Shown: positions 7,721 to 11,612 of the stretch, in pieces | Layout of the letters: every line of letters begins with the position of its first letter | Numbering within the stretch: position 1 is the stretch's first letter | Source of the DNA: Promethearchaeota archaeon | GTDB lineage: Archaea; Asgardarchaeota; Hermodarchaeia; Hermodarchaeales; Hermodarchaeaceae | Direction of reading: 5' to 3' | Assembly: GCA_048939245.1 (NCBI GenBank) | Contig: JBHLPR010000070.1 | Coordinates: forward strand, 1 to 11,612 | Length of the DNA: 11,612 nt | Made by a program: the position numbers and the translations under genes | Notes under the pieces: generated by a model | Told to the model about the DNA's origin: nothing | Database searches by the model: none | The model's input: the letters and a program-made list of their open reading frames with translations, nothing else

Positions 7721-10700
7721 ATGGATTCAAAAGAACCGGAACCAAAGGGGAAATCTCAGTCCATGCCAAAAAAACAAAAGCAGCAATCGCTACTGCGCAA
7801 AATTCTAACTGAAATTCAGGATGAGCCAATTCGACCCTCCAACTACCCAGCTACCCCTCAGTCAGGACCCCCTGGTATTCTATTGGATCTGGATTACCAG
7901 GGAGATGCAGGGGTCGCCAAAGTCAAACTATACGACATCAGCAAAGGGCAAATCTATGAATGGCTAGATAATACTGAGCACCACCCTTATTGTCTGACAG
8001 ATTTATCCCCCAACGTACTCTCACAACAAAATGATGTCATTAGCCATTCTGGCTTCCTCAAATTCGAGCAAATCCCTAAATATAATTTACTTCGCGATCA
8101 GGAAGAACAATACACCAAAATCGTAGCAAAAGACCCTTTAGCGATTGGAGGTCGCACTGACTCCATTCGAGAAAAATTGGGTCGAGAGCATGCGTGGGAA
8201 GCTGATATTCGATACACGCAGTGCTTTACAATGGATAGAAATCTGACACCGGGACTTATGTACCGAGTTCAGCAAAGCAATTTGGTACCAGTGCCACAGG
8301 ACTTCTCAACCGAGGATGCAAACAGAATTCGTGGCTTATTCAAAGACGATAAGGAACTTTCTAAACTCATCGAAGAATATCTCCCACTGTTTCTCACTCC
8401 TGCCCCATCTTTACCTCGGCTTGCCATTGATATTGAAGTAGAATCAGAATTCATCGATCGCATTCCTGATCCTACTCAAGCCCCTCAACCCATTATTTCA
8501 ATAGCTATCGTAGACAACAGTGGTGTAGGCCAGATTTTTCTCTTAAGTCGTGGCTCCCAAGAAAGCGCTTCGAAGAACCTTCCTGAAACAGTGAAAGTAG
8601 AAGTATTCGAAGACGAACGAACCCTTGTTGAAACGGTATTTCGCATTCTGTGGCGAACACCACTCTTACTGACTTTCAATGGCGACAACTTTGATCTTCA
8701 GTACTTAGTCAATCGTGCAAAACAACTGGGTATTTCTTCAACTGATAACCCAATACGTCTCAGGGGTGGCTTCCGAGGAAATCCGGAAGCGGATCTGGAA
8801 TATGGTGTCCACATTGACCTCTACCGGTTTCTTCACAACCGATCTATTCAAATCTATGCCTTTAAGAACCGATACCAAGAAGTTCGACTCGAGACCGTAA
8901 GCCAAGCACTTTTGGGTGAAGGCAAACTCGAGCTACCGGATGAAATTCAAAGTATTCCCCAACACCTCCTAGCGCAATACAACTGGCAAGACGCCAAACT
9001 CACTATGCGACTAACCCAATTTGATAATGACTTGGTTATGGGCCTTATCCTCCTCCTGATGCGCGTATCGCACCAAGGCATGCATGATCTCACACGCACA
9101 GCAGTATCGAACTGGATCCGCAGCCTCCTCTACTACGCCCACCGCCAACGAAACTACCTCATCCCTCGCCAAGACGAAATCGCCGCTCTCAAAGGCGAAG
9201 CCGTCACCGAAGCCATCATCAAAGGCAAAAAATACATGGGCGCCATCGTCGTCAAACCCAAAGCCGGCGTCCACTTCAACGTCACCGTTCTCGACTTCGC
9301 CTCACTGTACCCCAGCATCATGAAAGCCTACAACCTCAGCTACGAAACCGTTCGCTGCGACCACCCCGAATGCAAAGACAACCTCGTCCCCGACACACCC
9401 CACTGGGTATGCACCCGACGCGAAGGCATCACCAGCCTCATCATCGGACTAATCCGCGATGTCCGCGTCGAACACTTCAAACCCCGTGCCACAGACAACA
9501 CCCTCACACCCGCCCAACGCAGCTGGTTCAGCGTCGTAGAACAAGCCCTCAAAGTATACCTTAACGCGTGCTTACCCTTTGACGAGGAAATCATTACTCG
9601 AACACCCACAGGGCAGATAGAAAAGAGAAAAATTGGATCGCTTAAAGAAGATTGGTCAGATCTTGAGGCCCTCTCTATCAAGGCTAATGCGGAAAATGGC
9701 AATTTTGGTACTCCCCTTTTTGTACCCATAAAAGGATATGCTGAAACTGGGGCTGCTAAAATCTTCAGAATAACTCTTAGCGATGGTCGGCTACTCCGTT
9801 GCACTGCTAATCATGTTGTACCAGTTTATACAACCCAATTGGGAAGGAGATATGGCAAAGAATTTTCAATTCATGAGGTTCCAGCAGATGAATTGAAAGT
9901 AGGAGATGAATTACTCCTCTGTACACGAATGCCTTTCGCTCAATCAGTTCCTGATTGGATTTTCATTCCGGACCTTATAGATTCCACAAATCTTCTGATA
10001 GGAATGGAAAGACACGTCTACAAACGCTTCTCATATAAGAGAAATCAGTCAACGGAGATCAAAATAATACAAGTAATTAATAGAAAATTCGATTATAGCA
10101 AAGGTCGGAAACTCTACAAAGCTAATTGGGCTAATCTGACTGATGAAGAAAAAGAGGTAATTCGAAAAGCCACTCCCGGCCTGCTGAAAGGAAAAATCGC
10201 AAAAACGGCTCGTTCCCCTGGATTTTGGCAGGATTTGTCCATACCCTTATCAAAAGAATTCTTCCAGCTTCTAGGCTGGTATATTACAGAGGGTCATGGT
10301 CAGAAAAATCGATTCACTATAATCCATTTAACTAAGAAAAACCCAGAAAATGTTAATGAAATCATAAATCTCCTCAAACAACTAGACTGGCCAATCGCTC
10401 ATTATCGCGACAAGTCAATTGTTGTCCATTCTAATCTTCTTTCATCCGTTATTGGCACATTATGTGGAACTCATGCAACAAACAAACGTATACCGCTGTT
10501 TCTTTTAAACGAGGTAAGAGCTGAGGCCTTGCTTGAAACATACTTCAAAGGTGATGGGAACTTCACCTTGAAAGGACAACGACGTTATAGCACGGTAAGC
10601 AAGCAACTTGCAAATGATTTAACCTATATTCTTGGTGCACTTGGTAAGTATTCATCTCTTCATAGAGCTGAGAATATTATTAGAATCATAGAAAGAGTAG

Positions 10701-11612
10701 GAAAGAATTATGCACGGAAATATCGTGGAATAATGGACTTTAATGGGACGAATCTTGTTCGGGTCAAATCCATTGATGTTGAACCCAATTTACAACCGGT
10801 ATTCGACCTTGAAACTGGGAATGGTTGGTTTGTCACAACAAATGGAATTGTAACGCACAACAGCTATGGGGTTCTTGGTGCAGCGCATTTTCCCTTATAC
10901 TGCGCTCCGGCGGCGGAATCAGTTACAGCTCTAGGTCGGTATGCGATTACGCAGACGATTGATAAGGCGGAAGAGCTTGGGGTCACGGTGCTTTATGGTG
11001 ATACGGATAGTCTGTTTTTAGATCATCCTACAGAGGATCAGTTGAAGGCGCTCATCGAGTATAGCGAGAAAGAATTGCGTGTGGAGTTGGACATTGAAAA
11101 GGAATACCGGTATGTAGCGCTGTCAAGTCGAAAGAAAAACTATCTGGGTGTGTCCAAGGATGGTCAGGTTGATATTAAGGGATTGACCGGCAAAAAGCGA
11201 AATACGCCAATCTTTCTGCAGGAGGCATTCATGGAGATGATTGAGATTTTACGCCGGGTACGTGATCCCGATGGATTTGCCTCGGCGAAAGATCGGATTC
11301 TTCAGTTGGCTCGAGAAAAACTGACGATGCTAGAACGACGTGAATTTGATGTAGAAGATCTAGCAATCCGTGTGCAAATGACCAAGAACCTCGAGGCTTA
11401 CACAAAAACTACTCCCCAACATGTAAAAGCGGCTCGCCAGTTACAGCAAGCGGGAAAGGACGTAACAGCCGGGGATATCATTGCCTTTGTGAAAACGACT
11501 GACGGAGTGAAGCCGGTGGAACAGGCCGAAGTAAAGGATATTGATGTCTCTAAGTATAAGGATTTGGTGAAAAGTACCTTCGAACAAGTTCTTGATGCTC
11601 TGGGCATTGAAT
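7721..11612 (+). CDS. polB1: Family B DNA polymerase, archaeal PolB1 clade, intein-containing (3' truncated by window edge)
   Basis: Frame +2 was translated by hand to the window end without stops. PolB1 signatures DNTEHHPY, KDPLAIGG, AWEADIRY and YTKTTPQHVKAA; ExoI DIE (8429), ExoII FNGDNFD, ExoIII YNWQD; motif A DFASLYPS (9293), motif B KVYLNA/SYG, motif C YGDTDS (10994). The start could be 7697, 7721 or 7763; the last gives MPKKQKQQSLL, a PIP-like N-terminus. Confidence 0.95.
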   Translation, partial: MDSKEPEPKGKSQSMPKKQKQQSLLRKILTEIQDEPIRPSNYPATPQSGPPGILLDLDYQGDAGVAKVKLYDISKGQIYEWLDNTEHHPYCLTDLSPNVLSQQNDVISHSGFLKFEQIPKYNLLRDQEEQYTKIVAKDPLAIGGRTDSIREKLGREHAWEADIRYTQCFTMDRNLTPGLMYRVQQSNLVPVPQDFSTEDANRIRGLFKDDKELSKLIEEYLPLFLTPAPSLPRLAIDIEVESEFIDRIPDPTQAPQPIISIAIVDNSGVGQIFLLSRGSQESASKNLPETVKVEVFEDERTLVETVFRILWRTPLLLTFNGDNFDLQYLVNRAKQLGISSTDNPIRLRGGFRGNPEADLEYGVHIDLYRFLHNRSIQIYAFKNRYQEVRLETVSQALLGEGKLELPDEIQSIPQHLLAQYNWQDAKLTMRLTQFDNDLVMGLILLLMRVSHQGMHDLTRTAVSNWIRSLLYYAHRQRNYLIPRQDEIAALKGEAVTEAIIKGKKYMGAIVVKPKAGVHFNVTVLDFASLYPSIMKAYNLSYETVRCDHPECKDNLVPDTPHWVCTRREGITSLIIGLIRDVRVEHFKPRATDNTLTPAQRSWFSVVEQALKVYLNACLPFDEEIITRTPTGQIEKRKIGSLKEDWSDLEALSIKANAENGNFGTPLFVPIKGYAETGAAKIFRITLSDGRLLRCTANHVVPVYTTQLGRRYGKEFSIHEVPADELKVGDELLLCTRMPFAQSVPDWIFIPDLIDSTNLLIGMERHVYKRFSYKRNQSTEIKIIQVINRKFDYSKGRKLYKANWANLTDEEKEVIRKATPGLLKGKIAKTARSPGFWQDLSIPLSKEFFQLLGWYITEGHGQKNRFTIIHLTKKNPENVNEIINLLKQLDWPIAHYRDKSIVVHSNLLSSVIGTLCGTHATNKRIPLFLLNEVRAEALLETYFKGDGNFTLKGQRRYSTVSKQLANDLTYILGALGKYSSLHRAENIIRIIERVGKNYARKYRGIMDFNGTNLVRVKSIDVEPNLQPVFDLETGNGWFVTTNGIVTHNSYGVLGAAHFPLYCAPAAESVTALGRYAITQTIDKAEELGVTVLYGDTDSLFLDHPTEDQLKALIEYSEKELRVELDIEKEYRYVALSSRKKNYLGVSKDGQVDIKGLTGKKRNTPIFLQEAFMEMIEILRRVRDPDGFASAKDRILQLAREKLTMLERREFDVEDLAIRVQMTKNLEAYTKTTPQHVKAARQLQQAGKDVTAGDIIAFVKTTDGVKPVEQAEVKDIDVSKYKDLVKSTFEQVLDALGIE
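9569..10861 (+). mobile_element. Intein with LAGLIDADG (DOD) homing endonuclease, 431 aa
   Basis: Block A CLPFDEEI; block B DGRLLRCTANH; block C LLGWYITEG (~10268-10294); NKRIP; block E LLETYFKGDG (10529-10558); block H YSTVSKQLANDL; block F VFDLET; block G GIVTHN followed by +1 Ser. Removing it restores KVYLNASYG. Confidence 0.96.

Follow-up and report, generated by a model that had tools for sequence, protein, structure and literature searches.

Why should the silent sites of a gene exchange one strand preference for its mirror image at the point where an intein has been inserted? The question is raised by polB1, the family B DNA polymerase gene (7697–11612, + strand; Pfam DNA_pol_B_exo1 and DNA_pol_B) of a Hermodarchaeia archaeon, which closes the window (the whole stretch of DNA analysed, 11,612 nucleotides) and carries one intein. 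Third codon positions are rich in C and A before the intein and in G and T after it; in the initial annotation this was taken for a mutational footprint of repeated homing-endonuclease cutting and repair. Very probably the feature is genuine and records breaks made again and again at specific sites and mended by homologous repair; as its mechanism, biased gene conversion that is filtered by NucS and polarised by strand, acting in the homology arms over many homing cycles, is the best account, and a probable one. Site position, polarity, recurrence, composition and the presence or absence of genes were read directly from the sequences.

Composition of polB1 around the intein

Third positions were counted on both sides of the insertion, and the hand counts of the initial annotation proved exact: left block (9119–9568): C 104, A 33, T 7, G 6 (four in Met or Trp codons), with 22 of 22 Lys, Glu and Gln codons being AAA, GAA or CAA; right block (10862–11161): G 37, T 34, A 17, C 12. 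The 5' part of the gene and the intein were neutral, as had been claimed: 5' part A 147, T 130, C 122, G 75; intein (9569–10861) T 149, A 142, C 78, G 62; both near the genome background. Of the 146 free codons on the left, 137 have A or C at the third position (p ~1e-27 at 0.53); p ~1e-6 for the right block; amino-acid-corrected z: +10.8 (8959–9577) and −5.7 (10936–11179). Four-fold sites refine the counts, with C over A on the left (C 56, A 11, T 6, G 2) and G over T on the right (G 22, T 13, A 8, C 4). The best single change point, with the intein removed, was codon 621, the insertion being after codon 624; the skew fades over ~0.4–0.5 kb per side (0.5–0.9 kb in pooled relatives), and the G/T-rich strand runs away from the site, so that position, fading and polarity of the flip are all as first described.

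The left arm (8959–9568, core 9089–9559, + strand; codon counts and z scan) has C/A-rich silent sites on the strand running 5'→3' towards the cut site, and includes the left half of the presumed endonuclease target in polymerase motif B (9541–9568, + strand; sequence). The right arm (10862–11179, core 10934–11050, weak tail to ~11300, + strand; codon counts and z scan) is G/T-rich on the + strand, that is, C/A-rich on the − strand running towards the cut site. Between them lies the compositionally neutral core, an intein of 431 amino acids (9569–10861, + strand; PF14890 above cut-off, PF14528), which is in frame, begins with Cys, ends in His-Asn, is followed by Ser/Thr/Cys at +1 and holds a LAGLIDADG (DOD) homing endonuclease domain whose two motifs (10268 and 10529) have the acidic residues. 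Its borders (9566–9571 and 10862–10870) are one residue downstream of the classical pol-b position. The reading frame spans 7697–11611; the last 15 codons are on contig C47, joined to the window by a 77-base overlap.

Inteins at the same PolB site were found in six relatives of the genus and in genome G019; four PolB sites are used among the relatives (extein codons 535, 624, 643 and 671). At codon 624 genome G004 has a mini-intein of 194 amino acids, and the scar is still present. Empty polB1 alleles occur in relatives, and their cleavage by the endonuclease of the window is predicted.

Contigs of independent samples bridge both junctions (X3: no differences from the window at 9227–9575 and 10817–11194; X5: 14 differences at 9081–9637); the blocks are therefore not the product of a chimeric assembly. 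Strain X5 diverges less close to the intein, an observation left aside because the contigs possibly come from different strains. A depth spike at 9208–9341 in four of four runs has its source in other contigs that match a short conserved C-rich stretch.

Recurrence in the genome

An amino-acid-corrected scan of 1980 open reading frames (ORFs) gave 108 strong segments, among which the polB1 block ranks sixth. Abrupt flips share one polarity, 19 being C/A on the left and G/T on the right and three the opposite, and none arose in shuffles; skew blocks scattered at random are thus not what is seen. The polarity follows the DNA strand, independently of the coding strand, and intergenic DNA within the blocks leans to C/A as well, which excludes codon selection. 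Such selection, a single foreign patch or a misassembly has a negligible probability as the source of the skew: several blocks do lie in conserved, probably highly expressed genes (actin, RadA), but the bias reverses within one gene, 14 of the 15 polB genes scored in Hermodarchaeia have the flip, contrary to a single transferred patch, and the junctions are bridged as described above. No neighbour-base preference of the kind of a deaminase motif was found in the blocks. Genome-wide, amino-acid use in the blocks shifts with the skew (C/A strands: His 1.8×, Thr 1.3×; G/T strands: Val 1.4×, Asn 0.5×), and long false ORFs appear on the strand opposite to the blocks (C13:3033–3575; C115:26984–27856). 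Clustering of blocks at contig ends was considered and not supported (9 vs 6).

As had been expected of homing sites in general, block edges coincide within a few codons with intein borders in PolB, the PolD large subunit and MCM; flips also adjoin free-standing LAGLIDADG genes. Further flips were found at conserved motifs of intein-free genes, the names of which were assigned by reading translations: two porB, two Rab-like GTPases, an H+-pyrophosphatase, SPFH, RadA, hydrogenase subunits and actin. The flip of an intein-free porB falls on the codon that carries an intein in the Asgard genome G021. Inteins were not found inside RadA, the Rab-like GTPase, actin or NuoD of relatives, where several copies break at contig ends, so that absence is not established.

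The polarity is that of a replication origin, and with dozens of sites per genome the flips could be ascribed to many short-range origins inside genes with leading/lagging skew. This is very improbable: the centres lie within a few codons of intein borders and catalytic motifs, the neutral cores equal the inserts, the strength at one gene differs between close relatives, and none of the three orc1/cdc6 genes (C81:2463, C22:8843, C91:10249) is a flip centre. A true origin, named beforehand as the observation that would overturn the homing interpretation, is accordingly a very improbable source of these marks.

Recurrent breaks or recombination ends of a more general kind (with homing endonucleases as one source among others, such as further nucleases or DNA uptake ending at conserved motifs), for which the filter may still be NucS, have many flips without an endonuclease nearby on their side, as well as genome G020 with multi-kilobase skews and no LAGLIDADG_3 match. 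Against them, the blocks with the sharpest edges stop right at an intein border or lie facing a LAGLIDADG gene, an empty site was matched to an intein site in another genome, and homologous integration alone gives no reason for a flip at one codon; this explanation is therefore regarded as improbable, if less so than that by origins.

Several-kilobase blocks, mostly with no endonuclease nearby, were recorded in Wukong-like genomes (L367, L366, L435 and L436 in G020; L433 in G031). A gradual flip also runs across a gene for a 630-residue ATPase proteolipid-like subunit with many tandem repeats (G000 C92:24822–26711, L059).

Anatomy of the sites and free-standing endonucleases

The same layout, a skewed arm, a neutral core and a skewed arm, was observed at the sites. 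The first MCM intein is skewed in its final codons and the second at its beginning, each forming an arm of the site next to it. Free-standing LAGLIDADG genes (G000 C74:24295–26508 (L054), C68:2427–3557 (L052), C117, C18, C44, C55, C51) make up a family in which some members have a helix-turn-helix domain; it is present in 12 of 19 Hermodarchaeia genomes with up to nine matches each. Their 5' half is skewed like the flank and the C-terminal nuclease half is neutral; the border of the skew is a sharp change of identity between alleles of one locus (G000/G011: fall from 95% to 37–51%; G000/G003/G004: climb to 85–97%), and the C-terminal halves look swapped between alleles. LAGLIDADG-like genes stand tail to tail with a NuoD-like hydrogenase subunit and with actin; the NuoD-linked gene is present in some relatives and missing from others. 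The genes on C44 and C55 lack skew altogether, which would fit endonucleases that arrived recently or are inactive.

The skew is thus confined to homologous arms, inteins and mosaic endonuclease halves being neutral, and it is centred on presumed recurrent break sites and decays with distance, both as in biased gene conversion. We infer that the skew develops only in stretches over which donor and recipient share homology, and that alleles of the endonucleases replace one another's C-terminal module. The intein of the PolD large subunit (G000 C81:37890–42275, L055), which ends in Gln, is C/A-rich through its first endonuclease motif and neutral thereafter; this suggests that intein alleles, too, replace each other's 3' part.

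Proposed mechanism

The homing endonuclease would cut the empty allele, and each resected 3' end would pair with the donor and prime synthesis. NucS/EndoMS would correct only G:T, G:G and T:T mismatches, in short patches; with the primer strand corrected to the template, its G and T would be replaced, and A and C would survive in A:C, C:C and A:A mismatches. With MutS absent, the other mismatches would stay unrepaired, and over repeated rounds the 3'-ended strand on either side would turn to A/C; the two arms would then mirror each other around a core that is non-homologous and neutral. For Hermodarchaeia, a MutY-like glycosylase is the probable source of a further A:G → C:G step, by which C would overtake A. 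We infer that endonucleases cut at these sites, that NucS and MutY act in the heteroduplex and, as the polarity of the scar implies, that the primer strand is the corrected one.

Background data: Thermococcus EndoMS prefers G/T, G/G and T/T, and hardly cuts A/C, C/C and A/A (PMC4838380); mycobacterial NucS in vivo removes only G:G, G:T and T:T from the annealed incoming strand, in patches of ~6 nt (PMC11551744, PMC11551767); gene conversion in Haloferax requires nucS (PMC11276520).

Distribution among lineages and mismatch-repair genes

The PolB flip was scored at z of at least 3.9 in 14 of 15 Hermodarchaeia genes, six of the seven intein-free alleles included; in ~100 other archaeal PolB genes z is at most 3.1. 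Flip strength at one gene varies between close relatives. The site-centred part of the footprint first proposed stands; the mark is not tied to a resident intein, being carried by intein-free alleles and genes too. Among 41 Asgard MCM genes a strong flip was found in 9 of 10 Hermodarchaeia, in Baldrarchaeia (z 12.2 and 10.7) and in the Atabeya-type genome G029 (11.9), with flank z overall of 10–13 in these lineages; the skew is weak in G039 and G053 (Freyarchaeia). Long skews occur in Wukong-like genomes.

It was fixed before the search that canonical MutS should erase the bias. The mismatch-binding domain PF01624 (MutS_I) was used as the marker; PF00488 was uninformative, matching only a weak MutS-like gene in all five genomes. 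No skewed family has a MutS_I match; in intein-bearing MutS-positive genomes the MCM z is at most 2.1 in 16 of 17; family medians of the MCM skew differ by MutS status (p = 0.0016, uncorrected for kinship). NucS is present in all skewed families as a clear EndoMS orthologue (1e-61 to Thermococcus EndoMS). Loss of uracil-DNA glycosylase and presence of a Y-family polymerase, tried as lineage switches, gave no pattern in five genomes.

Base spectrum at four-fold sites

On the towards strand (3' end at the site) G and T are both lost and A:C stays near the background. Towards-strand four-fold sites of the lineages without a MutY-type match: Baldr A 124, C 40, G 3, T 3; Wukong-like A 484, C 258, G 42, T 113; Atabeya type A 46, C 46, G 5, T 1. 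In the same order, C/(A+C) was 0.24, 0.35 and 0.50, to be compared with 0.29, 0.38 and 0.51 if A:C were untouched. A transition-only process predicts 0.51 for Baldr and 0.57 for Wukong-like genomes and is rejected (p 2e-12 and 5e-35); the Atabeya-type value does not discriminate between the two. The chemistry named in the initial annotation, deamination of single-stranded DNA, is hence not supported: the composition of the Baldr and Wukong-like genomes rejects deamination and wobble alike, changes are not restricted to C>T and A>G on the exposed strand, the blocks show no context preference, and deamination of the resected 3' tail would be expected to give the opposite polarity.

In Hermodarchaeia genus g1, C/(A+C) reaches 0.86–0.88, and the most extreme zone has C 74, A 2, G 0, T 0. 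A strict NucS-only model fails on this C 74 : A 2 ratio, for which reason the MutY step was added for Hermodarchaeia. The genus has a MutY-like glycosylase gene with equivalents of Val45 and Gln182, residues of the adenine pocket (PMC2714593); two Wukong-like and two Baldr genomes yielded no such gene, and the MutY-family gene of G029 carries the Mig-type Leu.

Substitution rates

Four pairs of closely related species supplied the rates, from 24,849 four-fold sites in the background and 928 in skewed stretches. The favoured changes T>C, A>C and G>C run at 3.4–3.8× background; the reverse changes C>T, C>G, C>A and A>G run at 0.37–0.56× (C>T 0.46 [0.29–0.74]). Favoured changes raised and reverse changes lowered are the pattern of fixation bias. 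Four-fold identity of the flanks between different species is 0.97 vs 0.41 for the background.

The same sites could instead receive new mutations: the strand newly made in break repair, copied without mismatch repair or damaged while single-stranded, would gain G/T. Such a process has the same polarity and centre, would be favoured by the absence of MutS too, agrees with flanks that in some pairs are as diverged as the background or more, and ties with conversion when the depth of the flank genealogies is left free. Its transition-only versions are rejected by the four-fold ratios; it would require T:T and G:G errors at about the frequency of wobble errors, whereas transitions dominate the spectra of nucS deletions (PMC11551744); the reverse rates seem to lie under the background; and it fits nearly as well only with flank genealogies 0.4–0.6 as deep as the background. 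New mutation is judged unlikely, though it is the strongest of the alternatives. The initial annotation had read the footprint as mutational; the data lean to biased conversion, a form of fixation bias, although the likelihood test does not separate the two, its bootstrap with free depth spanning zero.

Several observations weigh against NucS-filtered conversion. With the depth of the flank genealogies free, the likelihood difference between conversion and mutation is 1.8 (bootstrap −4.6 to 13). Four f2 genomes and G057 are NucS-positive, without a MutS match, and have no MCM skew (z 0.4–1.7), with the caveat that most f2 inteins are short and that G019 is without a LAGLIDADG_3 match; G094 reaches z 4.5 despite being MutS-positive; in G035, a genome 84% complete, skew is present but NucS was not found; the lineages compared are not independent. 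Equilibrium is assumed in the prediction for transitions only, and its exchange rates are those of Hermodarchaeia. The MutY link is one lineage contrast, and the gene is below the NCBIfam cut-off. Flips at the two Rab-like GTPases, SPFH, H+-pyrophosphatase and RadA, and many in Wukong-like genomes, are without an identified endonuclease.

Comparison with known systems

GC-biased gene conversion is a bias of heteroduplex repair at recurrent breaks, in recombination hot spots; it acts on silent sites like selection, decays with distance and can push amino-acid changes. The Asgard feature shares the decay, apparently the effects on amino acids and probably the repair bias at break sites. GC-biased conversion is strand-symmetric and favours G+C over A+T; the Asgard bias, by contrast, depends on the strand, favouring A/C over G/T on the 3'-ended one; it switches direction at the break and can leave the G+C content as it was. 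A strand-symmetric gain of G+C was not found: one strand loses G and keeps A, and A:C is unchanged in three lineages. The feature works like biased gene conversion and fails the strand symmetry that defines the GC-biased form; it is therefore filed as a variant of biased gene conversion not previously described in the literature searched, from which most subscription journals were outside coverage.

Intein homing of the LAGLIDADG/DOD type (PMC10643990) is matched by the full-length intein at a conserved polB motif, the patchy distribution among relatives, the several sites per gene and the mini-intein of G004. Co-conversion in that system copies donor markers; in PMC10643990 the term skew is absent and a directional scar in base composition is not described. 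Free-standing homing endonucleases, intronless homing and marker exclusion of T4-like phages are alike in that, as far as the accessible parts of PMC2988022 and PMC2790892 go, an endonuclease gene adjoins a conserved, probable target gene and is patchily present; the genes described here differ in being chromosomal archaeal LAGLIDADG genes with C-terminal halves seemingly swapped between alleles and with cleavage predicted. The bases lost from the 3'-ended strand are those of the NucS/EndoMS substrates G:T, G:G and T:T (PMC4838380, PMC11551744, PMC11551767); in the literature searched the enzyme is known from replication errors and oligonucleotide recombination, not from an evolutionary footprint at break sites. 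Origin GC/keto skew, including the chromosome-scale skew of Atabeyarchaeia and Freyarchaeia (PMC11291895), likewise has its G/T-rich strand running away from the centre; the Asgard flips differ in extending ~0.5 kb and not over a replichore, in being far stronger, and in centring on intein borders and motifs and not on the usually intergenic origins adjoining orc1/cdc6.

A more general statement, that a second, strand-polarised form of biased gene conversion operates in prokaryotes with NucS and not MutS and marks every recurrent break site by a mirror-image scar, is held with confidence only a little above even. If true, genome composition would be under a newly recognised force, able to fix nearly all silent sites over 150 codons and apparently to shift amino acids too (His 1.8×, Thr 1.3× in blocks). 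From sequence alone, the scars would record past double-strand breaks and the length of repair tracts in uncultured relatives of eukaryotes, the base spectrum reporting the mismatch enzymes of the cell and the width the heteroduplex length; targets could be predicted for uncharacterised endonucleases, targets and allele-swapping could be mapped from one genome, and the strand choice of NucS would become testable. Frequent allelic recombination in uncultured Asgard archaea would follow. Two hazards are to be noted: converging flanks of different species can mislead trees of polB, MCM, PolD, RadA and actin, and skew flips can be mistaken for replication origins.

Other genes of the window

A TnpB/Cas12f-like gene of the IS200/IS605 family (5732–7117) has no transposase seen alongside and no flanking skew. 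The segments 1–219, 340–1359 and 1335–2223 comprise a divergent actin-family gene, before it the tail of an apparent second one, and after it two short helical proteins that match no Pfam family. A protein with DUF11 and adaptor-complex mu-like matches is encoded on the − strand (3902–5647); its neighbour (2865–3893) has a queuosine-salvage match and a Cys-rich tail.

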